A stretch of DNA of 64,000 nucleotides from Rhynchobatus australiae (lineage: Eukaryota): NCBI GenBank assembly GCA_034780895.1, contig JAUZTB010000098.1, positions 76,848,993 to 76,912,992 of the forward strand. The letters run 5' to 3'. Every line of letters begins with the position of its first letter. The stretch's first letter is position 1. A program made the position numbers and the translations under genes. A model generated the notes under the pieces. That model had not been told where the DNA came from. It searched no databases and saw only the letters and a program-made list of their open reading frames with translations. Of this stretch, positions 3,431-48,400 are shown one piece after another.

Positions 3431-6400
3431 CTAGAATCATTAGGAGGAAATACAGTGTTTACAACATCAGTTCATTAATTACATTAAGTTTGTGTGTCAG
3501 AATAGCTAGCAAATTAATATCATGTACTGATCTTTGGAGGACAAGAAAAACAGGTCATTTTTTCAAATATACTAATCATATAAAGCACCATTTCAGGCCA
3601 TCACAAATAACATAAGTTAAAGCTTAGCCTGGGGTGAGAAAAGAAATTAATGCTCCTTTGGAATTATAGACCTCAATACACCACACCTTTGTCAAGATGG
3701 CAGGCAGTTTGTTGAGACTTTTTGAAGCACTTTTAACAATGAATACTATCTAGCTGGCAATCTGGCTCAGATTAGATAGTTTATGCATCATTGGGACAAA
3801 CTTCATATTTAATGATCTAAATTAACAATAATATTGGAAAAGAAAATAAGAAATTATAATCAAAATACAAATCCAGTTCATTTAGCCACTTGCCTGCACT
3901 GGAATGAATTACTGAAAGGTTATGGGCTGGGGGTGAAGATTTAGGGAATACTGTAGGAACGGCTTCATGTTAATTTTATTTTGAGCTACTTGTGAATTTA
4001 TTGCAGTGACAGCCACAAACACAACTATGAATAAAGCTCAGGAGGTTCTGAACAAATTGAATTACAAGATTCAAACATGACCAGCACCATCACATGTATG
4101 GATGTGCACATTGCATATGGCCCTTGGTGTTAATTCTGTATTATCAGCATGTGTGATCCACACAGCTCACAAAGAGGGGCTACCATAATAGCTTATAATA
4201 CTTCAATCATCACTGCATCTTAAAGGCTTTCAGTATTTTTATCTTCATTGCCCTTATCAAAGAGGCTATTCAGGATAATCAATGCATTATGTCAGCAAGT
4301 CCTTTCTAACATAAAATCCTCATCAAAATGAGTAGAAAAGGTTCATGGAGCAGCATATTCTATTGCTGGTACTAGTTATTACAGCCCTGGAATTTTCTCA
4401 GCTGATATATTAAGTGGCACCAGTATTGATTTTTGATTTGTCAGCCAGGCCAGCCCTGGATATACTGTCTCCTTATTCAATGGTTATACCCTACCAATGA
4501 TCTAAGGGAATAATCTCTGGTGAGGACTAGTATCTGTAAGGGGCATTGGTTGGGAAATTGCAGATCAGCAGTACCTGATATTCAATCCAGTGAGAATGGA
4601 AGAGAAAGTTAACATCCACTGTGCTTACAAGATATTTTAAAGGATGAATCTGTGGAGAAATCACCTCCATCTACCTGTGATATTGGCCACCTCAAGGCTT
4701 CTATTATTTGCGATTCTCCCCTCCCCCCCGCCAATTCTATATACACTTATTATTCTTCTTCTATGAAGTTTTAACAGCTTATTGGTTACACACCTTGCAT
4801 TCATCCTCTTCATATCCAGAGATATCTGTTCGACTATTGGATACCTGGAGAAACCAGAGATAAAACAGGTGAATCAGAGATTTTCAAATAACTGCTTTGA
4901 TTCCAGATTGTGAAGCTCAAACAGCATTCAAAGCATGGTTGTGAATTATAGACCTTATTTTTCATCACACTTTCAATGTGGTCACTCATTATGGCAAGCA
5001 GGTTAAAAATAAATTCTTTAATAAACTTAACAGGCATGGACGCAAGATGAATATAAGCACATTAGAAACAATGCAGTTTATGCAAGAAAGCCTTCAACTG
5101 AGCACAGAGGTTATCTTCCAGTAAGGAATTCAAAAAAGCTATGTACAATTTGCATTTTCTAATACTGTAATATATCACCTCACCATTTGTATCTTCAATC
5201 TTAGGTTGCACAAAATTCTAATTAAACACTCACAAATACCAGAACTGAAAGTTTATAATTTCTCAGGGAAATTAATACACTATGGGTGGAGTACTAGCTG
5301 TTTCCCTTCAGAGAAACAACCCTGAAGGGAAAGGGTTTGTGAAATCGAAAATGGAGACATGCACCTTATGCAATGGCAGTCAAAAGGGGAACTATCCTTC
5401 GGACCAGAATATCCATTTTCCATTATTGCTTTGCATCTACTTATACATTTCCTAAAATGATCACTTTTACATTGCCTTCATGTGTTAAATGATGCCATGC
5501 CAGTATTCAAAGCAGTGATTAAAATAGAAATATGTCCACTCCAAATGACATCAGTCATCAGGTCACTATGCAAGCCACATTAGTCTACAAAATTAGAAGG
5601 CATTAAACTCTATCCATCATAATTCAATCTTCTGCCTGCCTCCTGCCATCTCTTGGTTGCTGATCGCATCTACCTAGTGTGATATACATGCATACATGCT
5701 GATGTCCAGTACTGTATTTCATACCTTTCAAAATAACATCTCCAGACCAAGGTTTGCAGGAGGTCTGCAAAGCCAGTCTCCATTTACTTCCAATTGACCT
5801 CGATTTTCTTTTTCTTCACTGTTGTGAAAATTTTCAGCTGCAACTGGATCACTGAAGTCATTGTATGTGGAAAGGGGAAATTAGGCTGGAGATGAGTGGA
5901 TGCATTTTTCCTATCAAGTGATGGATAACTTCGAGACATTTTGTTGTTAAGTGAAGTAGTTACTAAAGGAACAGGGAGATTTCATTAGAAGCTCATTTGT
6001 AAGTGGACAGTCTCTCCTGAGAATGGTAAAATGTGTGGACATTACATTCATATTATCAGTCAGTCTCAAAAAAGACTTCAGCTTTTCTTCTTGGGAGGAG
6101 CTCTTGGATGCAAGGTTTACTTGGTTATTTTCAGTTCTATTCTTCTTAGCACATTTATGGTTAATCCCCATTGTTGCGTTATCAACAGGATATTGTGGGA
6201 ATGATGGATAATATTCTCACTTTGAAACTGTGATTACATATGCATTTATCTTCTTTAGAAGTCTGTCAGCTATAAAAATGGAGCATCATCAAGAGCTGAG
6301 AAATTTCTTATAGAGTTTACTCATTCAAAAAAAAACCAAAATTATATCAGCCACAGAAAACCTCCATAAAAGTATTCAGCGGGGAGCTACAGATTTTAAA

Positions 6401-9400
6401 ATATAATTTTGATTCACAGTGTAGTCTAAATCAATAAAAAAATTACAAAGTTCCATTCACTTTGCACTTCTACCATCTCACCAAACAGTCGCAACCTGCC
6501 AAGTTGAAAAGCATTAACTCGTGCAAAATGCACCTATTCACTTTTTTTTATATACATCTTCATGATCGTTCATTATCAAACCAGAATGGGTACTGAATAT
6601 TGAACAAAATTGAAATTCCAATGAGCTATTGTGATTGAATGGAAAACTCACATGGAATTCAGTTTTCTATTTTTCCTAATATGATCACAAGTCTCTTAAT
6701 TACAGCCATAATTTGATCTCAAGTTGTTTGCTTTAGCTGGGCTGCACACAGTGAATTTCTGTCTTGAGCAGATGCAAATCATTTTCCACAGCTGATAAAC
6801 AGCACAAGTTTCTATATAAGATCAAGTTTCTGAACAAATTTCTGAACGTCAGCCAACTGTTACTCAGCTTCCAGTTATACACAAGTCCTTTGTGCACATC
6901 ATAGTAATCATNNNNNNNNNNNNNNNNNNNNNNNNNNNNNNNNNNNNNNNNNNNNNNNNNNNNNNNNNNNNNNNNNNNNNNNNNNNNNNNNNNNNNNNNN
7001 NNNNNNNNNNNAATCATGCAAAACTTCTTTGCCATTGTAGAGCCTTAAGGGATGGGACTTCAGATCAATGACGGACAACACTAAGCTTATTGAACAATCT
7101 TTGCACCCACACAGTTCAGTTCTACAAGAGTGAAGCTATACAGAATTGCACTAGGTTGAAAAATATATCAGGCAACACCACCATTCTATCCTTAACCTAC
7201 TAAATTTCAGATGTCAATGAATTTAGCATTTGTTAATTCTGAACGATATATGACAGAACAATTGTAAATAGAAAGCCAATTGAATCATAAAAGTTATCCA
7301 CACTTGGCCAGTACTGAAGCTACAGTAGGATCTACAGATTAACTCCAGTTCTTGATTAAATTACTCATCATCTTGGGATTTCCATTTGTAGTTTGGCTGT
7401 TAATTCCTCTTTTTTTAAATGTTGATGTTTACTATTGATCTCCATTTGATTCTTTTTTATGACTCAATGTCATAAAATATTTAAAACTTTTTACTGGTAT
7501 TTTAAAGCATCAGTTTTCTTTAAGCAGGCATTTTTGTCATCAAACACTTTTAGTTCACCGAGATAAACCAAGGCAACAATGTAATAATGTGAAGCACAAA
7601 TTCATCAGGACAAAGCGATAAGAGACAACTTGTTATTCAGGGTAATAATGAATCCATTTGTTCAATAGCTTAAAGTAGGAACATGGAAGTTTCATTTTAA
7701 CTGTATTATTCAACATCCAGAGGTATTCCATGTTTGTACACTATCTCAGCAGCTTCAGTTTACAGCTGGGACTCACCAATATTGAAAGCAACAAAGCTGG
7801 TTAACATTTTGTATTTTCATATTTCCATAGGATACGGCTTCTTTTGAAAATATTGCAATTTATATTTTAATTTTATTCATGTGTTTTATTTGTCGAAATG
7901 CTTAAAGCTAGAAAACAATGCCGCTGGCTTGCTTGCTCTGTAAGGTTGTTTCTGTGACTTTGAACCTTTAACTTTATGGCCTTTCTGTCCACAGAGGTAA
8001 CATGTACAGGACCTTTCACAGTTCAATGACCTTGTATTTTTGCTATCCAAGTTTGCTTTGAGCTTTGTATCACATTTGTTAGACCTCATTGTATTATCTG
8101 GTGTTAGGTTGGCTCCTGGACTTGCCCTGCAGTGCAGCTTCTCCATTCTCTGAAGTCTCTCCATTTGATCCATTTGGTGCAGTGCAAGTTGCTTCACTAA
8201 TGTGGTAAGCTCGAGCAGTGCAGGGTCTTGCTCAAANNNNNNNNNNNNNNNNNNNNNNNNNNNNNNNNNNNNNNNNNNNNNNNNNNNNNNNNNNNNNNNN
8301 NNNNNNNNNNNNNNNNNNNNNNNNNNNNNNNNNNNNTGCTCAAATCTTGACTGAACTCCAGCAAATTCAGAAGCATCTCCTAAGCTTTTTTCACTAACCT
8401 GCTCAGGAGGAGCTGGGTCACACACTTTGGGTGGCTTTCCGGATTGTCTGGAGAACATCTTATTTTCACACGGTAGTTGTTTCTGTTTAGTTTGTTGATC
8501 CTTGAATATTACTGACTTTTTATTAACAGCTGGAGGCCTCTGATGAATATTTTTCTCAAGTGGAGTACTTATAGACTGTGGCTTAATTTTGAAATCGTTA
8601 TGTGCAGAGGAGCTCCGTTTACTAGCTTTAGCTTTAAAAGATCTTAATACTGCAGACATAGAATAGGAGGCTTTGAATTCATTTGACTGCTCAAAGTTTT
8701 GAAAGAAACCAATTGTGGAGTCCAGTGAGGGTTGAGAGTTTCCATATTCTGCTCTGAGTTTTTCAAAAGCAGCAGCAGGGCATTGGTCCTTCAATGGCAA
8801 CTCAAGGACAAGCATTTTTGCTCTTCCCTCAAGGTGGTGTACCACAGTTGCAAACTGAAGTGTAGCAGGCACCTCATGAACATCGAGCATCTGCTGCATA
8901 TCCCTTATCCAATCTTCTACATCAATCCTACTGCTTGGATTTCCACCAAACTTGGGTGCACTCACTAATTGGTTGGGTGCCATCAGGGAATGATGCAGAA
9001 CCAGTGGTAATGATTCGGACTGACATCTGGCAGGAAAGGAATGGGCAGGAGGAAAGGACTGACTATCCATTTCTGGCAGCTTCCAATGTACTTCAGCTAA
9101 GTGATTGCTTGCCTNNNNNNNNNNCTCCCTCGATTCAGCAAGTTTCTTTTTCTAAGGAACAGATATGAGCAACAGATTTCAACCAATTGACCATGGGCAT
9201 CCAACATTTCGTTTTGGCTTCCAAGCTATGTTAGCTAGTCTCTGCTGTATTAGGCAATTGTAAACATTTAACAAAACACTACACCTTTCTTCACTAAAAT
9301 CAATTAGTTTACCCCTACCCTCTGCCCCACATTGATCTAGAAAGGACACAAAAGCTCCATACCTGTTCATAACTTGTCCCTACACCAAAGTGTTACCTAC

Positions 9401-12400
9401 TTTTGGTTGAATAGATACAATATACATGTGAACAAAATGTGTATTTCTCAGTTTATGGATAAAAGTTAGTTGAAAAATAGTGTGCTCTTAATTTTACATT
9501 AGTGGTTAAGAGCAGTCACAATGTGGGTCATGATTTTATTACCACCTTGAATGCTTCTTGTGTTTAGAGAGGGCAGTGGATAACAAAATACATATAGACG
9601 TAATCACACACTTGAAGGTCTTAAACTTTTCATCACCAAGTATAATACAAAAAGGTATAAATAAAGAAATCTCAGCGTTTACACTATGCTAAAATGCCTC
9701 CCATCAGAAGTATGTGCAATCTTCAGCAGGACGGAATTAAAGCAATCAATTCTAAAGCTCTTAGCTTTAGTAGTTTTAATCATAATTGCACATGCAGTTA
9801 TGAAAATACATGTAATATCACACTGAGTATCAAAAACAAATGCAGATGCTGGGAATCTGAAATAAAAAGCTGAAAACACACAGCATCTGTGAATAGAGAA
9901 ACAATTGACTTTCTCCTTCCACAGATGCTACCGACTTGCTGAGTATTTCCAACTTCTTTTGTTTTCATTTATTGCATAGTTCATATGACTTTTGCTCCTA
10001 TTTTACAAATGTTTTCTATTTTACAAGTTTCACCCTTCTGATATACAATTGTTCCACTGAATAAGCCTCAATTTCTTTTCTTTTCCAGACTCGAGCAGAA
10101 AGGCAGACTAACTTATCCAGCCCATTTCTAATATATAAACATGAATTTGACATCAAATTGGCTGCCCAAAGTGAGGTATCCATTGCCTATGGGATTTAAA
10201 TTTATTTTTCTCAAGCTTCCACTGATTAAGATATAACCATTATGATCTATATTTCACTTTCCAGCATGGATATCCCCAACTTTATAAAAGCTTGATGGTT
10301 ACTTTTTACTACAGCTCAACAAACGGGATGAAACAATAGACAACTTGCAGTCTGACTTTAAGGTCTCCTTCCTCAAATCCTACAAAAAGGCTTACTTGAT
10401 CGCAAAGCCATTCTGGGCACTTAAAAATATATCACTTGAAAATATTCATGCAAAACAGCCACATTTACCAGCATGCAGCAGCTGGGTAATTTGCAAACAA
10501 ACCATGCCTTGCATGAAAATATCTATAAAAGGAGAAAATATACAATTTTGAAATGAGAAACAAACTCCATCTGTGCAAGGTAATTCTACTATCCCTTGCT
10601 TTCTTACTGCACTATCCCATCCCCTCTCATTCCACTTTATTTGAAGACAATACATGTTCCCAATCCCTACTATGAAATACCAGCTTGTCTACATGAAGAT
10701 ACTTGCTTCATTCTTACACCATTTGGATGATAAACACTAAAATATTTTACTTTAAATAAAACACTCGAGAAGATTTGTTGCAATGTGTACTTCGCTGTCA
10801 GTTGCAGTGTAAGTATGGAGCAAAGCATCTTGTGGGAACTTCCCGAAAATGGGCAGCCAGTCACTGTGTGTGGGTCAGTGTGTTCCTGACTTCGATTCCT
10901 TTGCACTGCAAGAACCAGCTTTAATGTCAGACGCTGGCAGATCTGACAGTGTCCAGGGATACAGGTCAGATGTGCAGAGCTGAAGGGACAGATGCACGAG
11001 TGGGATTGCTGATCTGGTTTGAAAATTTAAGTGGTTTGATCTTTCTTTGTTACTTTTCTTTAATGTTTTTAATTTCTTCCATCTAAATGTTAAAAAAATA
11101 TTTACTTAAAATACTTCTGATGTTTTACATTATTTAAATCTATTTCAACTAACTGATATATAAAGCACTCTAGATTACAGGTGAATACCCAATGACGTTA
11201 TTCAAGACAAAAATCAAATAAAACGCAGGCAAACTGTGAAGAACAATTTATGGAAAAGGCCCAAACTGCCAGATGCAGGTTGGTGGAGCACACTTTATAT
11301 TCCATCTTTGTAGTCTCTAACCTAATGGCATCAACATTGATTTCTCCAACTTCTGGTAACCACTTCCCTGTTTTCCTCTTTCCCCTGGCCTTTGTTTTCC
11401 CGAATTCCTGTGGACCCCTTCACCCTTTCTTTCCCCTCTCCCACCCTCACAATCTGCCTACCTCCTTTCCTTTATTTCACAGTCATCTGTCAGATTCCTT
11501 CTTCTTCAGCCCTTGGCCTCTTCCACCTATCACCTCCCAAGCTTCTCACATTATTCCCTTTTACCACCCCTTCCCCCTCTCACCTGGACTCACCTATCAC
11601 CCTTTTACTCTGGCTTCTGCCCTCTTCCTTTCCAGTCCCAATGAAGGGTCTCAGCCAAAACGTCAACTGTTCATTTCCCTCCATAGATGCCTCATGATCT
11701 GCTGAGTTTCTCCAGCATTTTGTGTGCATTGCTCCAGATTTCCAGCATCTGCAGTCTCTCATGTAATAGAAAAGGACATAGGGCAGCCAAGGGACAGAGC
11801 ATCAGGATTCACTGTCAGAGGCCTGGTGACTGTTTCCGACCAGTGAAGCTATGAAAATTGCTACTGCATAAATAACACAGGGGCTAGGGATCTGGGGGTG
11901 TAGGACAGAGTGAAAGGATTGCAACCCATCCTAGCATTTCCATATTCATTGCTGTGTTCACTTCTCTTCACTTTTGATCGTTGCTGACAAATAGGAACTC
12001 AGTATTATCAGAAGCCTTGCAAGCAAAATACTTCAGATGCTAGGAGTTTGAAATAAAAACAAAAATTGCTGAGCAGATTGGGCAGCATCTGTAGAGAGAA
12101 GACCAACTGGCGATTGAGGCTGATGATCTTTCATCAGCACTCGGTACCGGTTTCCTTTCTTAGTTCTGATAAAGGCAGTTGACTTGTTTCTCGACTCACT
12201 GACCACCCCCGTATTTTGCAGCATTTCTTGGTTTTATTTCATTAAAGCTACAGCCTTTCATGCCTGTGTTGCTACCAGCTCTTTATTCACAGCTACATTA
12301 GGACAAGTTCCTTTCTGGAACATATGATGCATCTTCAGGGTTCACAGCATGCATCTGTGGTCAAAAGTGTTACTTCCTTGCAGAAATGTGACCTTAATAA

Positions 12401-15400
12401 CCCCACACATCAAGTCTCCCATAGACAAGGCTATACTAGCCAGGTGACCAAACAGTTTTACAATGATCCACATCAATTATGTTGCCAAATTCACAGATCA
12501 CCCATGCACCATTCTATTATTCAAGATCTCACCAAAAAAACCTCTAAAATAGTCAGCTGTCATGTTGGCATAACTACCCCTTACACCAGAAAAAAACAAG
12601 CTAGTGATCCACATAGTGCTTTTTAAAGACTATCAAAATGAGCTATTGTGCCAAATCTGGTTACAACTTGCGTCAGATTTGAAGGCTTTCTGATCAATTA
12701 GGTTCTCATCAAGGCAACAGTTAACACGTATACACACAAAACAAAATATATACATTATCAAAGCACTCTGGACCACAGATGAATTTACTACTCAAGACAA
12801 AAATCATAAAATGCAGGCAAATTTTTAAAACAATTCTCTGGTGCAATTTATTACCAAAATAAACTTGGTACTATACCTTGTCCTTGGTTATCCTCTTGAA
12901 GACAAATACTTTTAACACCTTCCCTCCCTTGACCTCTTCCCTACAATACTCCACACTTTTAAGATGTTGCATATAACACTTAGATCAAGTAGATTGGACT
13001 GTGGCCAAACGAAGAAAATTCCAGATCCATATGATTCTTTTGTTATGGAGGCTTATGAAAAGTAACATCTTAAAGCTACTTTAACTACATTATAAATTAT
13101 TAGTGCCCAAGGTAATTACACTTTAAGCAGAAGGATTCTAACACAGTGCTTTACTAACTATACCAAAAGTCATCCCGGTGCCCATTCTTGAGCACATGGC
13201 ATTATATCTGTCTGCTGTTGACCCACATTACTTGTGGTGGTACATACATGTTGAACGTTGGGTGTGCTGACACTCCTCTTCATGTACTTCCCTTTTGATG
13301 AAAGTGCTTCTTTCACTGTAACTGCCTAATACAATGATTTAAAAAAAACAAGTTAACATGTGCATAATGAAGGAGCCACTCATGAATAGACTGTTTTAAA
13401 TGTAAACATTAATAAATGACAAAGCAGTTGCCTACAATAACTGAAACTCCTGGAAACAACACACAATATATCAGCTATGAGCCTACGATTTTTTTGTGGA
13501 CAATTCTTCTGATGGTCCAAATTTGGACAAATGCAGAATCTTGTTACATTCAAGAATGCTGTTAAAACATATGCTTGAACTGTGCAATACAGGGCTAGCC
13601 ACACACAATTCTGGGGTGCTAAATTATTGGGACTGTGACTGATTGAAGCCACTTTTCACAATTGAGAGAGACTTGTGTTTTCACTGCTTACCCCCCCATC
13701 CCCCATTCACAACTTCCCTCTGCATTCATTACCTTCAGTCACCAGATAACAAATCACTATTAATGCCTCAACAAAGTCACACCTCATATTTTGCAAGCTA
13801 ATATTGCAACAGGGACCACAGATTACACTCAAGAGCCACAATAACAAATCAGGACTGATGAAGGGCCTGAAACATCAACTGTTCATGTCCCTCCACAGAT
13901 GCTTCCTGACCTGCTGAGTTCCTCCAGCTTTTTGTGTTCTTTGCTTCAGATTTCCAGCATCTGCAGTCTCTCATACATAACAAACCATACCATCCTTTTT
14001 GATGATGACTCTATCATTTTTCATAGACATTTTACTAGATGAACTACTCAATAGACATTGTAACATTTTAGCTAATTTAATTATTATCCCTTTGTGACAG
14101 AATAGCTGAAATCTGAACAGTGTACACATTCTTATCACCACAAACATTTGGGGAGCGCCTGGGCAGTTTTCTTCAGACACTCAGAGCAGACACTTGTCAG
14201 CACTTTAAGTACAGACTCTGACCTGTCGGAGTCGTTCCAAGCTCAGGATGTTTTCTACCTCTAACACTCCTCTTGTATACTTCTCAATGTAGGTTTCGCC
14301 ATCACCAGAACCATTATTTTCACTCTTAGCTGCCATTAGTGCCAGAGTCTCTCGATCTTCCGTCTCTTCTGAGGCCTGCAGGGAATAAGGGCAATTCATC
14401 AGCCTTATGAAAAATACAAATAGCAGTTGAATTGTTTAACATTCACTATTGCATTTCCAGAAGTGAAAATATGAAGTTTAATTACTACTACGAATAGAAA
14501 AGTTGTAGGTTAAGTTTCAAGTATAACTGAATAAACAAGTAAAAATACAACTCTCCCTGAATGCATGATCAATCAAGCCCTGGCTGAATCGTGGTTTGAT
14601 CAACTCTCACATAGGAATTTGCTAATAACAGGAGAAATAACAGGAAGACCCNNNNNNNNNNNNNNNNNNNNNNNNNNNNNNNNNNNNNNNNNNNNNNNNN
14701 NNNNNNNNNNNNNNNNNNNNNNNNNNNNNNNNNNNNNNNNNNNNNNNNNNNNNNNNNNNNNNNNNNNNNNNNNNNNNNNNNNNNNNNNNNNNNNNNNNNN
14801 NNNNNNNNNNNNNNNNNNNNNNNNNNNNNNNNNNNNNNNNNNNNNTTTAAAAAATGCGTTTCTTCCAGATTCTCCTCTTCCACATTGATATTCTGCGTCA
14901 AGTGTTAGGAACCTTCAAGGACCTTATCTTAGCCCCCAGTGTTATGGGCAACATTGTCAGCAGCAGGTGATACTACAGGGAAAACTGATCCAGGTTCAGT
15001 CAGATGTTGACACTTAGACACCCTTCAACCAGAGCACAGTAGAAAATTTGGCCTTTTCTTCTTTTTCACTCAGGCTAAATGTAATATTGTTATTTTTGTG
15101 CTGACTGGGTGTCCTTGTACACCAGTCTCTGAAAGCCAGCGTTCAGGTGCAGCAGGCAGTTCGGAAGGCAAATGATATGGTGGTCCTTATTGCAGAAGGG
15201 TTTGGGTACAGGAGCAAGGATATCTTGCTGGAGCTCCTGGAGTGTTGTGTGCAGTTCTGGAAAAGACATTCTTGCCATGAAGGGAGTAAAGCAAAAGTAT
15301 ACCAGAGTGATTCTTGGCATGGCAGGAATGATGCACGAGGAAAGATTAGGTCCATTGGAACTTAATCCATTGGCATTTAAAAGAATAAAATGGGATTTCG

Positions 15401-18400
15401 TGAAAACCTCTAAAACCCTGACCGGACGTGACAGATTAGATTCGGGGAGAACGTTCCCAATGGTGGGGGAGTCTAGAACCAGAGTTTATCATGTCACAAT
15501 ACAGGGTCTGCCATTTTGAATGGAGATCAGAGATACTTCTTCACTCAGAGGATGAATTCTCTACCGTAGAGGACTGTAGAGACCAAGTCATCAAATGTAC
15601 NNNNNNNNNNNNNNNNNNNNNNNNNNNNNNNNNNNNNNNNNNNNNNNNNNNNNNNNNNNNNNNNNNNNNNNNNNNNNNNNNNNNNNNNNNNNNNNNNNNN
15701 AGAGACCAAGTCATCAAATGTACACAAGGAGGAGGTGGATATATTTCTGAATGCAAAGGTGTTCAGGGATATTGGGAGAAAGCAGGATCATGGTACTGAA
15801 GTGGCTGATCAGCTATGATCATTATGAATGATTGAGCAAATCAAAAGGGCTGAATGGCCAATTCATTCCTGCCCCAAATTTCTATGTCACAGGGACTTTC
15901 AGGTGCTGACCCATAGAACTTCAGTGTCGTACAGATCCTCCTGAAGAAGTCTGATGACAGTAAGTGTCTGAACAACTCAAAAAGAACCCACAGGCTTCCC
16001 ACTCATCTAATACTTCTCCCATTTAACAAAGAGATCTGTTCTCTCGCTAATGGTGTGAATTTATGGCCAACCTTGCTAAACAGCAGAAATTTTTTTTCCT
16101 TAAGGATTTACATGCCGTAGCTAACTATGGCTAAGTCGCCCGAAACTTCTTTCAAACGAAGCAGAGGATGAAGTGCACCCCTTTAATTTGGGATTCAAAA
16201 TTTCAGCAAGCAAAAGCTTAACATTTTAACCCATATGTCTTAATTTTCACAAACCCAGTACTTCTTCAACAGCTTATTAATTATGATTATCCTATTGAAA
16301 TAACCAGTTTTCTTCATTATCTGATTGTCAGACATTGATTTACCTTGGGTATGTTGGAAACTATTTCGTAGGTAACTCCACACGAATGAAGAATATATTT
16401 GTAGGACATTCTTCGCTTCAGACTCTGTGTAAAACTCTGTAAAAAGTCATTAGAAGAGTATTTTTGATTTAAGAATATAATTAAATTAATTCTTCCCTCT
16501 AAGAGCAATTTAACAGGCAGTATAAAAATAATACAATGGGATACTTTTATCAATTCTCTTCTCTTTAAATGTTGGCTTTCCTTAGTGGATCAGATGCATA
16601 CCCATGGCTTTCTTTTTGAAACTGTCCACCACCATTATGAACCCTAAACTTCAGTTAAAATTACCTTAGAAAAATTAAAAGACTGGATTTAAAAATGAAA
16701 AATGGGTCAGCCAAGACACCAGAGCAACAAGAAAAGCAGAGTAGGCTAAGTAGTCTGTGATTACTGATACCTTAAAGTCCCATCAACTACAGTCACAAAC
16801 CAGAAGTATGATGCAATATTCACCTGTACGTGTCACCCAGATACAGTGATTTTACTGTCCATGCCACTGGATATAATATCCACTGTCAGTTCACGTTGTG
16901 TACCAATTTTAACTAAACCTGCATTGCAGCATCTTAAAACTATTTCAACAGGACCTTTCTTCCCTGAAAATTCTAATTGAGAGGAAGACAAGAGGAACAT
17001 TATCAATGACAGCATCACCAATAAGTGATTTGGACTTCTACCCTTTCCCTCAGTGCCCCTTGAATTTCCTACCTAACATCTGTGCAACAAGAGAGCAGTG
17101 TGCAAGGAAAAGATCTGCCACTATCCTACCCTCACTGTGCAAAAGGATAGTAATAAATATGGACTAACCAGGAATGCACAAATCCCAAGTTCAAATATTT
17201 ACAAATATACACCTGAAGTTCAGTACAAAGTAGCTACGGCATAGGACTGGAAGCAAACTTGTGAAGAATGAACCAGGCTAGAATAAATCTATTTCTTTCC
17301 ACTCTGCTACCAAACATGCACTGGTTTTGGATTCTGAATGCACTAACAGCAGACCTGCAGCACTAGTTTCAAATCAAACCAGTTTTAGTATGGATGCAAT
17401 CTAAAATGTGGCAGCTATTTGTTCAAACAAGATGGACAGATGTTGATCCATGACTTTCCACAGCACATTATTGCTTGCTGCTATTTAACAAGGCAAATCA
17501 TCATAACTGTCCCTCATAAATATATAAGTCATTAATAAAGGAAAGCTTAATATTTCACATGGATGCTTTTTCCTCCCTGCAGGTCAAAGTGGTGGGGTAC
17601 GAGCTAGATTCCCTGCTAAAGTTCATTGGGAGGAAGGGGAATTATTGGAGGTGATGTTGCAGTTTTCCTTTGCTTCCCTGGAAAATATCAGATTTTTTTG
17701 TTCATTTACATCAATAATGTCATACCTGCTTATTGTAAACATTGACTGCTATACGTTTACGTAACACCAACTCCACAGCAGCTGGGTGGCTGAGCTGCAC
17801 TGTAACCTTTACAATCAAATAGATGCGTTCATTCTGGCTGGTAACTTTGTTCAAATATATTGAATCATGGACCGATGAGTCCCAGGAAGCAACAGCTGAG
17901 ACCTAGAGGCAAGAAGAGAAAATTTCCTGGCTTCTAACAGATTCTTAAGTTTCTACGTTAAAGCTACCAGTACTTTTGCAGTTAAATATCATCACACATT
18001 GGACATGCATTTTATTGCTATAATTAATGTGAAGTAAGGAAAAAAAGTTTTACTGTGCACTTGGATTTTTAACTCAGAAAATGAGCTCAGTAAAATGTAT
18101 TCATTGATTTTCCCTTTCCTCTTCCCCTTGGGAAGTTGTTGATGTGACATACATCAGCTGCCAATTATGTAAGCACTGAGATCCACTCTGTGAGCTCCAA
18201 TAAAAGTCCTGGAACACACTGACAAGGATGCCAAAAATAATTTGCATCAGCCAAGCACATAGCCACACTACACTGCTATTGATTTTTTTTAGTTCCATCA
18301 CTTTCTGATCAGCTTTCAGAGTTAAACTAGACGTTCAGCTTCAATAGTGCATGCTCACAGACCTTATCACTGATACCATCCTAGCACTTTATAGCATTTT

Positions 18401-42400: not shown

Positions 42401-45400
42401 ATTGGGTTAGGGCAGCCAAGTTCCATGATTTGAACAAGCATTAAAACCCCCTCTGGTGCAACAAACAGTCTGCTGGAGGAACTCAAAGTAGAGCAGCATC
42501 TGTGGGAGGAAAGGAATTGTCAATGCTTTGGGTCCTGATGCAGGGTTGCGTCCTGAAATGTTGACAATTCCTTCCCCCCTACAGATGCTGCTCTTCCCCA
42601 CGTTGAGTTCCTCCAGTAGATTGTTCGTTGCTCCAAATTCCAGCATCTGCAGTCTTGAGTCACCATTAAAATCCCCTCTATTTCATTCTCCTTCACAATG
42701 ATTATTTTCTAATTCTCCGCATGTCATAGATTTGGCAAAGGAGAATTGGACACTCATTCAAGCTGGAAATTTAAGACTGTTAATATGTACACTGCTCATC
42801 TTTTGCAGCTGGGGAATGGCCAGCCTAATCTCTCATCTCACATTCAGTTCAGGTCATTCTAATTTTAACCAAACCTAACCACGTACTAGCAGTGGTCGTA
42901 GAGAAGGGGTGGTGGATTTAAAGGCCAAGCATCATATCAGTCCGAAATTTAGAAAGCAGAAACCTCTGCCATCAAAAAAATCATCAGATTTAGGAAAATT
43001 ATAAACAACTGGGTGTTCCTTTCAACTAAATTTTCAAAATGTATGAAAATGAGTCTGAATGTTTTTTTCCCTCTCCTCCCCCCTCCAACTTTGTTTGATG
43101 TTTTAAAAAAGTCATCTAATGTATGTAGCAAGACTAACTTTCTTCACTGGTCAAACAGTATTCCAGGGATTTGCAATGATAATGAGGTTTATTCTCACTT
43201 ACCCTGCAGGTCAATTTCTTTGCCATGTGCACAATCTCACCATTATTGTCCATTACTTCACAGCTTCCGCTCTCACTTGAGTTCTCTGATGAATCATCTC
43301 CGCCATCCTGACGTTCTGGAATCGCACCATTAACTCGCATTACTTCAACGTGGAGCCGGCCAGCGACCTTGATTCAATGGGGAAAACTTTACCACGTTAC
43401 ACATTTCCCTCAAACTTTCNNNNNNNNNNTGAGCAAATCACAGTGATACTTCCTGAGTTTTATAATTTGCAATCAAACTGGTTCAGAAACTAAACAGCAA
43501 CATCCAGTTACGTTTATCTTTTAGCTAAAGTACAGAAAGGTGCAACTTTAATAAATTGATGCAGGGTTAAGAAATGCTAAGGTTTATACCAATTTATGGC
43601 AACACTCACCTCCCCCTGCTGGCTGATGATGGGAACAGCATACTCAAGTTTTGCATCATGGTAAAGACATTCCAAGAAGACATTGGCTACACCAATCAGG
43701 TTATGGTTTTCTTGGGCCTCGTAGAAAGGGTCTCCGTGTTTACTGAGAATTTTATTGTACTGAAGTAGGATTTAAGAAAAAAAACACAGAATAGGTTATA
43801 GTAAGAAAGTAAGTTCCCTCCATTTTGGAGAGGAACGAGTGAAACTGGAACTTTAGACAATAGATTTGAATGAAAATTAATAGCAGCAGTTTTCATTCTG
43901 TACTTTTTTTCCTGGAAGTAAATCCCAATCCATCCCCTCACCCTTAATGAATTTATCCAGTGAATAACCCGGCTACTTTGAATGCGAAGTGTACTGTTTT
44001 AGTGCTTGGGCTGTGCTTGTTCACTGTGCTCGAACAGATTCTAGAGTTGGCCTCAATAACTTAAATAAAGGGCCTTTCAGGATATTCCAAAGGGCTCAAC
44101 AACCAGTAAATACTCCAGAGGTGTAACATGTGGGGGAAAAAACCATAAGCCAAATTTACAACCAGTCAGCACACAAAAATAGAATGAACTTGCCATGTTC
44201 CTCAAAAAAAAAGGCCATGGCATTCTTTAGATCTATCTGAGAGGGTAACAGCGTCTTGATTAAATCTGCAACCAGAAAAACGGTGCTTGTGGCAGTGCAG
44301 CATGTTCTCAGCCCTGCCTGGGATGTTAGCCTCGATAATCTGTTTACCTTCCTGGGACAAGCTAAAACCCACAAGAATCTGACCAGAAAATTCCTGATTG
44401 ATGGTGATGGCCAGTCAAAGTCTTCATATTTGAACACCAAACGAATTAGAATCAGTTGCGGATAAGCCTGCAGTTGTTAACAGAAGTCACCCAGCATGGA
44501 AATTAATCAGCAAGCAAAGCAGCACAGTCCCTTATTCAAGCAGCTTGGCTAAGAGTGGAAATTCATCAGTGCATGGAATTTGTAAACACAAATTCATTCT
44601 CCAGCATGGTATACTGTAGCATGTTTGTGCACCATTATGCCCAACATAACCACTCTTATATGCAACTCTAATTGGTAAATGTCAACATACTATATTAAGC
44701 AATGATGCACGTTACAAAGTCTCCCTCTCAAAAAGTTCTGTTCTTATGTACTCCTTGCACTCACATATTCAACCATGTCTTTCTCCTTCCAATCTTGATA
44801 GAGATCTCTCATATCAATCAGTTTGTTCTCTAGCTTCTCAATCGCCCACACTTGGGTACCTTTTCCCTTGCGTCGAACTTGAATGGCGGATTCGCTTACA
44901 ATTGCTCCTCTCTATTTTGATGAACAACAACGTTAAAGCATGTAACAAACTGAATATCAATGCAAGTTGTCATGAAGAACTGATGCACCGCTTTGCTCAT
45001 CTACATTAAAACCAAAGATAAAATATGATATACATCGAACGCAGCTTCTGAAACAAAAGTAGTACTTTTGGAAAGAGCAGATTCATCAGCATCAAGAGAA
45101 TTCAGACTAGCTGGAAAATCCAAATTTAAATTATGAACTAGAGCCAAAGCAGAAACAACTAAAGGAGGGAACACTGAGTGGAAAGGTGGCAGAGCAGCAG
45201 AGTTGGCCGAGCTGCTGCTCACAACTCCAGTGACAGATGTTGCAAAAGGGACTGGGACAGAGGTAAAAGAGGTGGGGGAGTGGCATTGCTAATCAGGGAT
45301 AGTATCACAGTTGCAGAAAGGGAAGNNNNNNNNNNNNNNNNNNNNNNNNNNNNNNNNNNNNNNNNNNNNNNNNNNNNNNNNNNNNNNNNNNNNNNNNNNN

Positions 45401-48400
45401 NNNNNNNNNNNNNNNNNNNNNNNNNNNNNNNNNNNNNNNNNNNNNNNNNNNNNNNNNNNNNNNNNNNNNNNNNNNNNNNNNNNNNNNNNNNNNNNNNNNN
45501 NNNNNNNNNNNNNNNNNNNNNNNNNNNNNNNNNNNNNNNNNNNNNNNNNNNNNNNNNNNNNNNNNNNNNNNNNNNNNNNNNNNNNNNNNNNNNNNNNNNN
45601 NNNNNNNNNNNNNNNNNNNNNNNNNNNNNNNNNNNNNNNNNNNNNNNNNNNNNNNNNNNNNNNNNNNNNNNNNNNNNNNNNNNNNNNNNNNNNNNNNNNN
45701 NNNNNNNNNNNNNNNNNNNNNNNNNNNNNNNNNNNNNNNNNNNNNNNNNNNNNNNNNNNNNNNNNNNNNNNNNNNNNNNNNNNNNNNNNNNNNNNNNNNN
45801 NNNNNNNNNNNNNNNNNNNNNNNNNNNNNNNNNNNNNNNNNNNNNNNNNNNNNNNNNNNNNNNNNNNNNNNNNNNNNNNNNNNNNNNNNNNNNNNNNNNN
45901 NNNNNNNNNNNNNNNNNNNNNNNNNNNNNNNNNNNNNNNNNNNNNNNNNNNNNNNNNNNNNNNNNNNNNNNNNNNNNNNNNNNNNNNNNNNNNNNNNNNN
46001 NNNNNNNNNNNNNNNNNNNNNNNNNNNNNNNNNNNNNNNNNNNNNNNNNNNNNNNNNNNNNNNNNNNNNNNNNNNNNNNNNNNNNNNNNNNNNNNNNNNN
46101 NNNNNNNNNNNNNNNNNNNNNNNNNNNNNNNNNNNNNNNNNNNNNNNNNNNNNNNNNNNNNNNNNNNNNNNNNNNNNNNNNNNNNNNNNNNNNNNNNNNN
46201 NNNNNNNNNNNNNNNNNNNNNNNNNNNNNNNNNNNNNNNNNNNNNNNNNNNNNNNNNNNNNNNNNAGGGAAGACGTCCTGGAGGGATCATCTACTGAGTC
46301 AGTGTGGGTGGAGGTCAGAAGCAGGAAGAGAGCAATCACTCTATTGGGAGTATTCTATAGGCCCCCCAGTAGCAACAGAGACACCAAGGAACAGATCAGG
46401 AGGCAGATTTTGGAAAGGTGCAAAAATAACAAGATTGTTGTCATGGGCGATTTCAACATCCCTAATATTGATTGGCACCTCCTTAGTGCAAAAGGTTTGG
46501 ATGGGGTAGAATTTGATAGGTGTGTCTAGGAAGGATTCCTGACATAATATGTAGACAGGCCCACTACAGGACAGGCCATTCTGGATCTGGTACCACGCAA
46601 TGAACCTAGTCAGGTGTCAGATCTCTCAATGGGTGAGCATTTCGGAGACAGTGATCACAACTCTCTGACCTTTTTTGAGGGGCAGGTCATGCCTCACAAG
46701 CCTGATTGAATTCTTTGAAGATATGACAAAACGCATTGATGAGTGTAGAGCAGTTGATGTGGTGTATATGGACTTTAGTAAGGAGTTTGATAAGGTTCCC
46801 CATGATAGGCTCATTTACAAGGTCAGGAGGCATGGGAACCAGGAAACTTGGCTGTGTGGATTTGGAATTAACTTGCCCAGGGAAGACAAAGGGTGCTGGT
46901 AGATGGAGCGTATTCTGCCTGGAGGTCAGTGACCAGTGGTGTTCCGCAGGGACCTGTTTGGGACTCCTGCTCTTTGTGATTTTCATAAATGACTTCGATG
47001 AGGATGTGGAAGGGTGGGGTAAGCAAATTTGCAGATGACACGAAGGGTAGTGGTTTTATGGGTAGTGTAGAAGGTTGTCGAGGGTTACAGTGGGACATTG
47101 ATGGGATGCAAAGCTGGGCTGAGGAGTGGCAGATGGAGTTCAACGCAGAAAAGTGTGAAGTGATTCACTTTGGAAGGTTGAATTTGAAGGCAGAATACAG
47201 GGTTAATGACATGATTCTTAGCAGTGTGGAGGAACAGAAGGAGCTTGGGGTCCAAGTCCACAGATCCCTCAAAGTTGCCACGCAAGTTGATAGAGTTGTT
47301 AAGAAGGCACATGGCGTGTTGGCCTTCATTAGTCGGGGTAGAGTTCAAGAGCCAGGAGGTAACGTTGCAGCTCCATAAAACCCTGGTTCAACCACACTTA
47401 GAATATTGTTTTCAGTTCTGATTGCCTCACCGTAGGAAGCTTTAGATAGCGTGCAAAGGAGATTTACCAGGATGCTACCTGGATTGGAGAGCATGACTGA
47501 TGAGGATAGGTTTAGCGAATTAGGGCTTTTCTCTTTGGAGTGAAGGGGGATGAGGTGTGACCTGATAGAAGTGTACAAGATGATAAGAGGCATAGACTGA
47601 GTGCACAGCCAGAGACTTTTTCCCAAGGTAGAAATGGCGAACATGAGGGGGCATAATTTTAAGGTGATTGTAGGAAAGTATAGGGGGTATATCAGAGGCA
47701 AGTTTTTTTTTTATATACGTCGAATGTGCTGCCAGGGGTGCTGGTAGAGGCAGATACATTAGTGACATTTAAGAGACTCTCAGATAGTCACATGGATGAT
47801 AGAAAAATGGAGGGGTAGGTGGGAGGGAATGGTTAGATTGACCTTAGAGTAGGTTAAAGGGTTGGCACAACATTGTGGGCTGAAGGGCCTGTACTGTGCT
47901 GTAATGTTCTCTGTTCTATTAGTGTAAATGGTTTGCATGGACTCAGTGGACCAAAAGGCCAGTTTCTGTAATGTAAGATTATGACTGAACACTGAAGGGT
48001 GTAAGTTACAGATAACTGAAGCGGCCTCTCTTGAAGTAACCATCTGTATATTTAGATCAAGCATTCCCTTGAGAAAAACAGCAACATAATACCTTCTGTG
48101 AATAAAATACAGGGAACACCCATGTTACAGCTGTTCGGGTTATGGAAATTTGCCCTTACAGGATTCACAAATCACTACCCAAAAAAGTTTGAGATATGGA
48201 ATAAAATTCGCTCTCAGGGCATTTATGTGGGGGGGAAAAGAAAGTAAATAAAAACAAAATGTATTTCTTTTTTCAATTTGCTTTCTTGGCAAATGTGCAG
48301 ATGACATGGCTTTGCATTAGGGAAAATCACGACACGAGCTGTTTTCTAGGAATGCAACTCTCTGTAATATGGGGGTTGCCTATAATGAACTGTCCGGGGT

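Follow-up and report, generated by a model that had tools for sequence, protein, structure and literature searches.

A Probable Alternative Terminal Exon of the Kinesin KIF13A Derived from a Ty3/gypsy Gag in Cartilaginous Fishes

Introduction

The known cooptions of Gag in vertebrates have produced stand-alone genes or the SCAN domain. In the case of SCAN, a piece of a gypsy Gag (Gmr1-like) is fused to host zinc-finger proteins, as described in the accessible parts of PMC3424704 and PMC8321522. PNMA proteins are encoded by mammalian stand-alone genes that trace to an event at ~159 Ma, and the Arc and SCAN events are placed at ~352 Ma; all seven animal Gag events in this systematic survey lie outside the cartilaginous fishes (PMC8321522, accessible part). 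A further route is found with Lyosin, in which an L1 ORF1p exon is joined to MYL4, and with three other ORF1p fusion isoforms. Here a gene of the cytoskeletal motor system has acquired a retrotransposon structural ORF as an alternative coding exon; the fusions are ancient, the canonical isoform is retained, and some domains are selectively kept with loss of the C-terminal domain (PMC12129022, accessible part). As stated in that same part, the queries of the Lyosin screen were LINE ORF1p only, and a term search of the text and 10 supplementary files of PMC12129022 gave no occurrence of KIF13A.

The locus described here resembles each of these systems. It lies in Rhynchobatus australiae, within a stretch of 64,000 nucleotides (the window). 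It shares the exon route with Lyosin, and its gypsy Gag origin and zinc knuckle with PNMA (PF14893; PNMA2 capsid 8rb3/8uyo), which also provides the best structural match to its capsid N-lobe. The same lobe fold is found in Arc and dArc (7r24, Z 8.8; 6s7x, Z 8.4; 4x3h, Z 6.2). A sequence-only reading had proposed a solo, intronless domesticated Gag gene nested in a KIF13A intron. The ORF is, with high probability, a Gag-derived alternative terminal exon of KIF13A itself. It does seem to be undescribed, as that reading supposed: no report of a KIF13A Gag exon was found in the literature within search reach, which excluded most subscription papers and bioRxiv supplements, and term searches of PMC8321522 (text and one supplement), PMC11011659 and PMC3670739 returned neither KIF13A nor a shark Gag event.

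A probable alternative end for KIF13A

The ORF is real and runs from 9070 to 7886 on the minus strand, which is the KIF13A strand; across the same interval the opposite (plus) strand has many stops. Its placement within the KIF13A intron at 4845-13247 also stands, with a donor GT at 13247 and a canonical acceptor AG ending at 4845. It had been called the only long stop-free non-KIF13A ORF in the window. The length holds, at 383 non-N codons against 232 for the runner-up among 6618 stop-free frames, but the ORF belongs to KIF13A. The start assigned at 9070 does not hold either, given that the frame is open from 9151, 27 codons above that ATG, directly after a pyrimidine-rich stretch ending in TTAG that marks a splice acceptor at 9152/9151. 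The TAG of this acceptor doubles as the stop delimiting the open frame. The features are, in window positions:

13248..13352, minus strand: last KIF13A exon common to both isoforms, ending KRSVSTPNVQH in phase 0, from tblastn of P0003 residues 1296-1330; 13352 is the tblastn limit and the upper edge is approximate
9152..9190, minus strand: alternative splice acceptor, pyrimidine-rich stretch and AG; orthologue residue 1331 aligns to 9151
7886..9151, minus strand: coding part of the Gag-derived terminal exon, 421 codons including N runs, ~381 true residues, stop at 7888-7886
9068..9070, minus strand: ATG of the sequence-only reading; Met at this position in only one of four shark and chimaera orthologues
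9115..9124, no strand: 10-N run, most likely a near-zero-length assembly gap; no insert in four orthologues
8237..8336, no strand: 100-N run, most likely a near-zero-length assembly gap; no insert in five orthologues
7872..7890, minus strand: pair of AATAAA hexamers that may serve as polyadenylation signals for the Gag isoform
4794..4844, minus strand: canonical KIF13A exon that follows (VSNSRTD), where the CAP-Gly tail replaced by the Gag exon begins

The assignment as an alternative exon rests on an acceptor in phase with the exon at 13248 (donor GT at 13247-13246), on the same junction in database models, and on the presence of the ATG in one of four orthologues. This ATG distribution, conservation that continues upstream to the acceptor, and models from four species that splice to KIF13A argue against the solo nested gene. 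The fusion orthologue P0003 maps onto 13352-13248 and then 9151-7898. Downstream of the Gag exon the canonical CAP-Gly tail is intact in the Rhynchobatus genome, and an in-frame acceptor and an intact canonical isoform are thus both present, as in Lyosin-like fusion isoforms. The result is a tail swap, in which a CAP-Gly tail of ~630 residues gives way to a Ty3/gypsy Gag of ~380 residues. A third, short isoform ends 154 residues past the same junction, likewise without CAP-Gly.

Relatives lack a matching insert at both N runs, from which the true exon length is taken as ~381 residues; the exon-encoded tail in relatives has 378-384. Read contigs agree with near-zero gaps, with 130 letters in run X13 across 8235-8478 (the 100-N run) and 977 letters in run X2 across the 989 places of 8880-9868 (the 10-N run). 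At the other end of the exon the stop overlaps one AATAAA (7890-7885) and a second lies downstream (7877-7872), as had been noted. Compared with run X13, no substitution is listed at 7870-7891 and 18 are listed at 7789-7869 (indels are not displayed). No pol accompanies the ORF, with no remnant in the window or 50 kb beyond, and no LTR pair flanks it, the intron having no LTR-sized direct repeat (longest families 35-36 nt); both points had been read correctly from the DNA.

Run X13, from a relative and probably RNA, has a 1386-base contig that covers 7759-8234 and 8479-9151, and the same run X13 contig also carries the canonical spliced joint 4840/13244 (CT..AC). The joint from 13248 to 9151 is not among the 15 joint rows listed of 211. 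Cover in run X13 is scant just above 9151. The exon has little cover in run X6 and none in run X22, where pieces at 12809-13273 include intron, so that X22 may hold DNA. These cover patterns are left out of the argument, and contig depth ratios are not read as expression levels.

Distribution, selection and age

The junction, STPNVHH followed by KKKLAE or RKKLAE, is found in five database proteins from three sharks and one chimaera: Pristiophorus X1 and X2, Mustelus X4, Chiloscyllium plagiosum X6, and Callorhinchus A0A4W3IBK6. These fusion proteins are gene models and not peptides, and the junction is the same in NCBI and UniRef models. The cartilaginous-fish range proposed earlier, and the same-intron orthologue named there as a check, are seen as this shared KIF13A junction in the protein models of the four species. 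Fusion forms turned up solely in the search of longer proteins (3 of 414). The near-length protein search matched P0002 alone (1 of 1636 candidates), a 308-residue orthologue from a 1,504-base contig. When 207 proteins of more than 900 residues, drawn from the 120 best among 881 hits and from the cluster members listed, were compared with the exon profile, matches were confined to the five chondrichthyan fusion forms. The teleost, bichir, gar and coelacanth KIF13A proteins in this set gave none, a sample that does not establish absence in bony vertebrates. Among listed isoforms, at most 15 members being listed per cluster, the Gag exon is in none of nine ray and skate species and is absent in 9 of 12 shark species. 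The exon is single copy, as proposed: four own-genome searches, which give lower bounds, yielded only the KIF13A locus, and a control with an RT query scored 119 matches.

A quick tree included 41 of 62 free Gags (those of at least 280 residues, over the last 340 residues) and no PNMA protein. A single branch with SH-aLRT support of 100 separates the six domesticated copies from the rest; the chimaera is outermost among them, following the host phylogeny. The frame is intact in all six. About 371 residue changes separate the Rhynchobatus and chimaera copies, and none of the ~21 stops expected without selection is found. Purifying selection is also seen against run X13, with pN/pS of 0.29 over 62 codons only (10 synonymous and 12 non-synonymous changes, p=0.005). 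Among host copies conservation is 83% in the post-capsid helix, 65% in the N-lobe, 59% in the first 60 residues from the acceptor and 42% in linkers. The exon is 43% identical to that of the chimaera, compared with 64% for the canonical tail (Mobula to chimaera) and 92% for the core. Exon capture appears to predate the chimaera-elasmobranch split, ~420 My ago.

Gag origin and domains

The Ty3/gypsy Gag origin first suggested by capsid motifs (PKFGG, VEDWIRDM, HLEGRA and FEKLRAEYG are read in the ORF) is reinforced by the N-lobe fold and by homology to the Gag of a pol-bearing element. This nearest element, L012, has 34% identity over 203 residues (E 4e-35), and a 1,437-residue pol with the order protease-RT-RNase H-integrase comes after its Gag in the -1 frame. 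L012, too, yielded no LTR pair, and its contig may be incomplete. The exon is collinear with a whole Gag from N-lobe to knuckle, up to the stop. Many gypsy RT copies reside in the Rhynchobatus genome, and searches giving lower bounds found no close Gag relative there. ESM Atlas offers, as a lead only, Gag-like clusters at 0.88-0.92.

Assignment to the PNMA family was considered and rejected, as Pfam PNMA reaches 12.2 bits against a gathering cut-off of 25; free Gags of the same group likewise fall below it. With the exon searched as two halves, Pfam gave PNMA at E 0.13 and zf-CCHC at E 0.03, both sub-threshold. Descent from the mammalian PNMA cooption was also set aside, the exon being a part of chondrichthyan KIF13A and not a stand-alone gene. 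The view that this domestication is independent of the mammalian PNMA, RTL and Arc events stands.

8735..8968, minus strand: capsid N-lobe (CA-NTD), residues 35-112 counted from the ATG, conserved and predicted to fold
8471..8734, minus strand: decayed capsid C-lobe (CA-CTD-derived), residues 113-200
8135..8236, minus strand: amphipathic helix after the capsid, the most conserved stretch of the exon, with predicted coiled-coil self-association
7961..8002, minus strand: zinc-knuckle remnant, CX2CX4HX4S

The N-lobe is predicted to fold with pLDDT of 91-98 over residues 41-110 and retains 22 of 33 columns that are invariant in free Gags. Its model aligns to PNMA2 8rb3 over 75 residues (Z 9.3, rmsd 2.3), and the top 22 rows of the structure comparison are all capsid lobes, PNMA2, Arc and Copia capsids being the best. 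Foldseek gave no match at E of 0.001 or below, and its first ten rows are nonetheless capsid lobes; a profile search of PDB sequences at the same threshold matched knuckles and no capsid (PNMA2 E 0.67). Decay of the C-lobe is common to the six domesticated copies, with 5 of 29 free-invariant columns retained and pLDDT of 46-74, where a free Gag modelled from the same 43 sequences reaches 93-98. The fourth Cys of the knuckle is Ser in Rhynchobatus and P0002, and the CCHC is full in the three sharks and the chimaera; Pfam zf-CCHC is below its cut-off in the Rhynchobatus exon and above it in P0003.

Helix identity is 83% among the six domesticated copies, 32% among six free Gags and 38% between the two groups. 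A three-copy model of the helix scored 0.63 (pLDDT 79), with 0.02 for the best of three controls, and the runs agree in at least 90% of contacts. In calibration with two copies, and not three as used for the helix, 21 of 30 solved pairs and none of 23 single chains attained the complex-model mark (17 of 29 and 0 of 30 in eukaryotes). Just one of seven eukaryotic pairs without an older solved relative passed, so a coiled coil may pass by likeness.

Proposed function and its alternatives

We propose that a Ty3/gypsy LTR element entered this KIF13A intron, in sense orientation, in an ancestor of all living cartilaginous fishes. Its pol and LTRs would have been lost after insertion, and the gag frame would have been captured as an alternative last exon through the in-phase acceptor at 9151. 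Splicing from 13248 to 4844 would give the canonical motor, with its ~630-residue tail ending in CAP-Gly. Splicing from 13248 to 9151 would give a motor of ~1,765 residues, with motor domain, neck, FHA, stalk and RSVSTP site unchanged and a Gag tail ordered as capsid N-lobe, decayed C-lobe, conserved helix and zinc knuckle.

This tail would act as an oligomerising cargo adaptor and not as a capsid. KIF13A monomers are inactive and require dimerisation, so the helix, by bundling several motors, could activate or cluster them with less dependence on Rab22A. Going by fold likeness alone, the N-lobe may bind partner peptides as the Arc N-lobe does; the Arc N-lobe with a stargazin peptide (4x3h) is a model for a capsid N-lobe reused for peptide binding in trafficking. 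In sharks and chimaeras the knuckle may also contribute RNA binding. Overall, this would amount to a minor isoform with different cargo and no CAP-Gly control of microtubule landing. Fusion-exon anatomy and adaptor tail together have a probability of about 0.55; once the anatomy is granted, the odds lean toward the adaptor mechanism.

It is unlikely that the exon is kept mainly for regulatory tail removal, giving a CAP-Gly-less KIF13A with its own 3' UTR in which Gag is a tolerated cap without specific cargo. Faster evolution of the exon than of the canonical tail would suit this role, as would the decay of the C-lobe (and of the knuckle in Rhynchobatus) and the short isoform, which drops CAP-Gly too. 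Yet that isoform already gives a tail-less form, plain truncation requires no 380-codon frame over ~420 My, and conservation peaks at the helix and N-lobe relative to the linkers. The chances are poor for a nested gene that stands by itself, with a promoter of its own and a start at the ATG at 9070, whether as the sole product or together with the fusion. Rhynchobatus does have in-frame ATGs at 9070 and 8983, and P0002 is called as a separate protein, but the contig behind P0002 is too short for upstream exons to appear, no Met upstream of the N-lobe is common to the five full-length copies, and conservation of the 60 residues from the acceptor is contrary to such a start. Least probable is a neutral relic joined to KIF13A by gene-prediction software alone, even with no listed ray annotation carrying the exon and no 13248-to-9151 joint in the rows listed; six intact frames, the ~21 missing stops on the chimaera path alone, the junction common to NCBI and UniRef models, and the pN/pS value all count against it.

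Dominant-negative decoys usually take the form of a half-capsid, and a restriction factor would accord with this. N-lobe, helix and knuckle would co-assemble with an active gypsy or viral Gag and, lacking a C-lobe, poison the lattice, with the motor dragging particles from the nucleus, like Ty1 p22/Drt2 or Fv1. The titles of PDB entries 7nlg and 9rxy name Ty1 CA-CTD restriction factors, gypsy RT copies abound in the genome, and viruses exploit KIF13A transport (PMC9081326, accessible part). This role is nevertheless quite improbable, as the lower-bound searches found no close Gag relative as a target, and a helix so alike among hosts and so unlike free Gags points to a host partner or to self-binding more than to an arms race. 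An Arc- or PNMA-like capsid, with Gag tails forming particles that carry RNA, whether the motors stay on as a coat or are first cleaved off, has similarly low odds to the stand-alone gene. It would draw on the collinear whole Gag, the best fold matches, 53-56% identity among hosts in the C-lobe-derived region, and a whole CCHC in four of six copies. Against it, the C-lobe is not predicted to fold whereas a free Gag on the same sequences folds both lobes, few free-invariant columns are kept there compared with the N-lobe, no protease lies downstream, and a 1,384-residue N-terminal partner would probably crowd the shell. With the C-lobe decayed, the models make capsid assembly by the tail unlikely, and the earlier idea of an RNA-carrying capsid loses ground further with the missing fourth Cys in Rhynchobatus.

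A bolder form of the adaptor reading is doubtful. It would make this the oldest vertebrate Gag domestication (at least ~420 My) and the first motor with a built-in capsid-protein cargo tail, which clusters and activates the kinesin and directly loads RNA granules or Gag-containing particles through N-lobe and knuckle. If true, a transport route derived from virus-like particle assembly would be confined to cartilaginous fishes.

Comparison with known systems

Both isoforms come from one gene, making the effect of the tail swap on kinesin-3 activation and cargo choice directly testable. The Gag parts kept by selection once capsid building was dropped are the N-lobe and the post-capsid helix. 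Pfam reports no capsid family on the fusion isoforms, so further Gag fusion exons may sit unnoticed in annotations.

Free Ty3/gypsy Gags of fishes and other animals (P0004-P0065; L012) have both lobes and a CCHC, come with pol and exist in many copies, whereas the KIF13A exon is alone, single copy and spliced to a host gene. Arc and dArc have separate origins, are stand-alone, two-lobed and capsid-forming, and show 9-16% identity in structural alignments. PNMA2 capsids are two-lobed as well, while the KIF13A tail retains one lobe. SCAN derives from the capsid C-lobe and serves in oligomerisation rather than capsid building. It is N-terminal and spread to many genes; the KIF13A exon keeps the N-lobe and downstream helix, is C-terminal and belongs to one gene. 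The source of SCAN is also Gmr1-like, in contrast to the pol order of the element nearest to the KIF13A exon. Lyosin took its exon from a LINE ORF1p, whereas the donor here is the Gag of an LTR element; the recipient is a kinesin heavy chain, and the exon is terminal and replaces the CAP-Gly tail, at ~420 versus 280 My (PMC12129022, accessible part). The KIF13A case would add to the known Gag cooptions an older event, a new route in the form of an alternative terminal exon, and a new host in a kinesin-3 motor.

Gag exon and its probable junction to KIF13A

The open reading frame proposed by the sequence-only reading is real, lies on the same strand as the surrounding KIF13A (whose exons map across the window by tblastn) and is the longest stop-free frame there (383 non-N codons vs 232 for the next, 6618 frames compared). 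Its intron position and two AATAAA signals, one overlapping the stop and one downstream, were also described correctly.

4845–13247, minus strand: KIF13A intron
9070–7886, minus strand: originally proposed frame
9151–7886, minus strand: Gag-derived exon
13248 to 9151, minus strand: predicted joint of the Gag isoform
13248 to 4844, minus strand: joint of the canonical isoform

The claim of a solo nested gene is not supported. The open frame starts at 9151, 27 codons above the proposed ATG, directly preceded by a pyrimidine-rich stretch ending in TTAG, an apparent acceptor. The upstream KIF13A exon ends in phase 0 at 13248 (STPNVQH, then GT), and joining the two gives the in-frame continuation KKKLAE. 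A search among longer proteins gave three matches among 414 candidates, every one named KIF13A.

KIF13A proteins matching the exon
Pristiophorus japonicus, isoform X2: 65% to the exon
Mustelus asterias, X4: 57% to the exon
Callorhinchus milii, A0A4W3IBK6: 45% to the exon

Two more, Pristiophorus X1 and Chiloscyllium plagiosum X6, came from looking up protein clusters. All five fusion proteins read STPNVHH and then KKKLAE or RKKLAE, with 378–384 residues to the end, and tblastn places the Callorhinchus protein on 13352–13248 and then 9151–7898. The proposed Met occurs in one of four species, the alignment holds no Met above the capsid region common to all copies, and conservation among host copies is 59% over the first 60 residues of the exon. 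The in-phase junction, orthologue models, unshared Met and conserved upstream residues make an alternative terminal exon of KIF13A the best reading of this frame. Two N runs fall within it; orthologues have no insert at these sites and relatives' contigs cross both with fewer letters, so the true exon length is probably ~381 residues.

As far as gene models, signals in the sequence and conservation can show it, the tail is swapped through alternative splicing. The canonical route is intact in this genome, with a 630-residue tail encoded, CAP-Gly included, from 4844 onward, and Pfam finds no CAP-Gly in the Gag isoforms. The next canonical exon starts VSNSRT; the batoid proteins listed share this start and the sharks shown do not, which makes a ray or skate the probable host.

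The sequence RSVSTP (13260–13277), which fits a 14-3-3 motif, lies four residues before the junction and is kept by both isoforms. By position it probably matches Ser1371, the site of MARK2 and 14-3-3 action in the accessible text of PMC11098127; judged in this way, Ser1371 precedes the junction. A third C-terminal form of KIF13A in chondrichthyans (P0204, P0208 and others, ~1,548 residues) ends 154 residues past the same junction, without CAP-Gly.

Expression

The run search returned no run with matching sequence recorded as RNA. Run X13, from another species and guessed to be RNA, has the canonical joint in spliced form (CT..AC, with 8,403 skipped) as well as a contig of 1,386 bases that covers 7759–8234 and 8479–9151 and carries three further letters beyond 9151. 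Contigs are blind to RNA ends and levels, so this cover is a hint of exon expression. The joint from 13248 to 9151 is absent among the 15 of 211 joints listed. The fusion proteins are gene models; among the isoforms listed, the exon is present in three of 12 shark species and absent from nine batoid species. A minor or tissue-limited Gag isoform would fit. Three short X13 contigs lie downstream of the exon, at 5658–6878, and the exon contig extends past both AATAAA; in the X13 species the 3′ UTR of the Gag isoform may extend further, or else these are repeats or unspliced RNA.

Gag origin, domestication and age

An exhaustive search found 64 relatives, which below two orthologues are proteins at about 25–50% identity. 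Contig L012 carries a Gag closely related to these proteins and, after it in the −1 frame, a 1,437-residue ORF whose protease, RT, RNase H and integrase stand in Ty3/gypsy order. The exon matches this Gag over 203 residues (34%, E 4e-35) and is collinear with free Gags, those outside KIF13A, from N-lobe through knuckle to stop. Homology to the Gag of a pol-bearing element, collinearity and a capsid-lobe fold bear out the proposed Ty3/gypsy origin. Membership in PNMA or Arc was rejected: the suggested Pfam check gave PNMA 12.2 against a cut-off of 25, the exon has one lobe only, and the origin is separate. Relatives of the donor Gag family also have gene annotations, all uncharacterised, in the coelacanth Latimeria (P0020, P0308), the medaka Oryzias (P0004) and the crinoid Anneissia (P0038).

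Domestication, as first proposed, is supported by a single locus, the lack of pol and LTRs, one supported tree branch and an intact frame. No pol remnant occurs within the window and 50 kb beyond, and no LTR-sized repeat within the intron. The same genome was searched with two exon parts as protein, one DNA query and one free Gag; this locus was the sole match to every query, counts that are lower bounds. An RT query gave 119 matches as a positive control, so the search does detect multi-copy elements. A quick tree of 47 rows sets the six domesticated copies together on one side of a branch (support 100), with the chimaera outermost, Mustelus beside Chiloscyllium, and the window copy beside P0002, a 308-residue orthologue. 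The accessible text of PMC6238376 puts the chimaera–elasmobranch split at ~420 My ago.

Window and chimaera copies share 43% identity (162/373), or ~371 changes after correction; at 0.056 stops per non-synonymous change, ~21 stops are expected without selection and none is present. Against X13, pN/pS is 0.29 (p=0.005; 10 synonymous, 12 non-synonymous; the 62 codons covered by the differences listed, 40 of 521 rows). Both results point to purifying selection. The exon evolves faster between ray and chimaera than the canonical tail (64%) and core (92%), which counts against this.

Retained and decayed parts

Exon and free Gag folds were predicted from the same 43 sequences. Exon residues 41–110 from the ATG have pLDDT 91–98 and residues 111–200 have 46–74; the second lobe of the free Gag has 93–98, and in that Gag both lobes align to PNMA2 and Arc. 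Structural matches of the folded exon lobe include the N-lobe of PNMA2 (Z 9.3, rmsd 2.3, 75 aligned), Arc (Z 8.8), Copia (8.4) and dArc1 (8.4); capsid lobes fill every one of the first 22 rows. These Z scores are modest for a helical domain, so the weight rests on the uniform match list and sequence homology. Six free Gags share 33 invariant columns in the N-lobe and 29 in the C-lobe, of which 22 and 5, respectively, are kept.

The best-kept part is the post-capsid helix (83% identity in six host copies vs 32% in six free Gags). Its three-copy model gives a heptad-contact bundle (0.63 vs 0.02 for the best control, pLDDT 79, at least 90% contact agreement between runs). In calibration, the mark was reached by 21/30 solved pairs and 0/23 single chains; among eukaryotes the counts were 17/29 and 0/30, and 1/7 without an older solved relative. 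The helix may self-associate as a bundle; three was the only copy number modelled, so the oligomer may be of another size, and a coiled coil could reach the mark by likeness.

In the chimaera and the three sharks the zinc knuckle is CCHC; the window copy and P0002 lack its fourth Cys. Two positions ahead of the knuckle's first Cys (8006–8008, minus strand), 6/6 domesticated copies and 0/6 free Gags have a Cys or His; speculatively, this residue might be a substitute zinc ligand for the missing Cys in this lineage.

Possible function

According to the accessible text of PMC9081326, KIF13A monomers are inactive, dimerisation is promoted by Rab22A and the tail contacts cargo adaptors; that of PMC10404244 has the KIF13B CAP-Gly controlling landing and processivity on tyrosinated microtubules. 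We favour, at a probability of roughly 0.55, a Gag tail whose helix would bundle motors, whose N-lobe would bind partners, by analogy with the Arc N-lobe and stargazin (title of PDB 4x3h), and whose knuckle may bind RNA where whole. The exon might instead act by mere removal of the CAP-Gly tail, a doubtful alternative given the well-kept helix. A capsid decoy is unlikely, and a true capsid is less likely still given the decayed C-lobe. A stand-alone gene, with its Met unshared, is as improbable as the true capsid. An artefact, conceivable for gene models, is the most improbable of all beside five concordant fusion proteins.

Other features of the window

A second copy of the FHA-region exon, diverged and frame-shifted, lies at 61054–61181 in the intron above the true exon (58494–58640; tblastn). 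Very high-copy short repeats, probably SINEs, occupy ~9830–9970 and 11100–12100 in the intron above the acceptor, at depths of thousands to hundreds of thousands. Broken frames at 15090–15519, 45178–47710 and 59968–60390 may derive from LINEs, by likeness to endonuclease and reverse transcriptase pieces. A CAP-Gly domain ends the canonical KIF13A of cartilaginous fishes and also most of the teleost and coelacanth forms listed (P0164, P0088; L005, the stretch just beyond window position 1). CAP-Gly distinguishes KIF13B from human KIF13A in the accessible part of a review (PMC9081326). From its presence in fish and lack in human KIF13A, it looks ancestral and lost on the human line.

Comparison with known systems

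In its accessible text, a systematic survey (PMC8321522) counts seven events in animals, the oldest in vertebrates at ~352 Ma; none of the seven falls in cartilaginous fishes, although Callorhinchus and Rhincodon were among the genomes surveyed. Sharks appear only for the integrase-derived GIN2 in the accessible text of PMC3424704, and the term KIF13A is absent from PMC11011659, PMC3670739 and PMC12129022. The literature searched, with subscription papers and bioRxiv supplements outside reach, holds no description of a Gag–KIF13A isoform, which thus appears undescribed, as first supposed. In databases the isoform is called simply KIF13A, with its Gag part unrecognised. SCAN is a Gag piece reused for oligomerising, and the Gag tail is perhaps alike in use. 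In origin it resembles Lyosin, in which a retrotransposon structural ORF was exonised into a host isoform (PMC12129022, accessible text). Its unusual host and great age set the Gag exon apart among Gag co-options.
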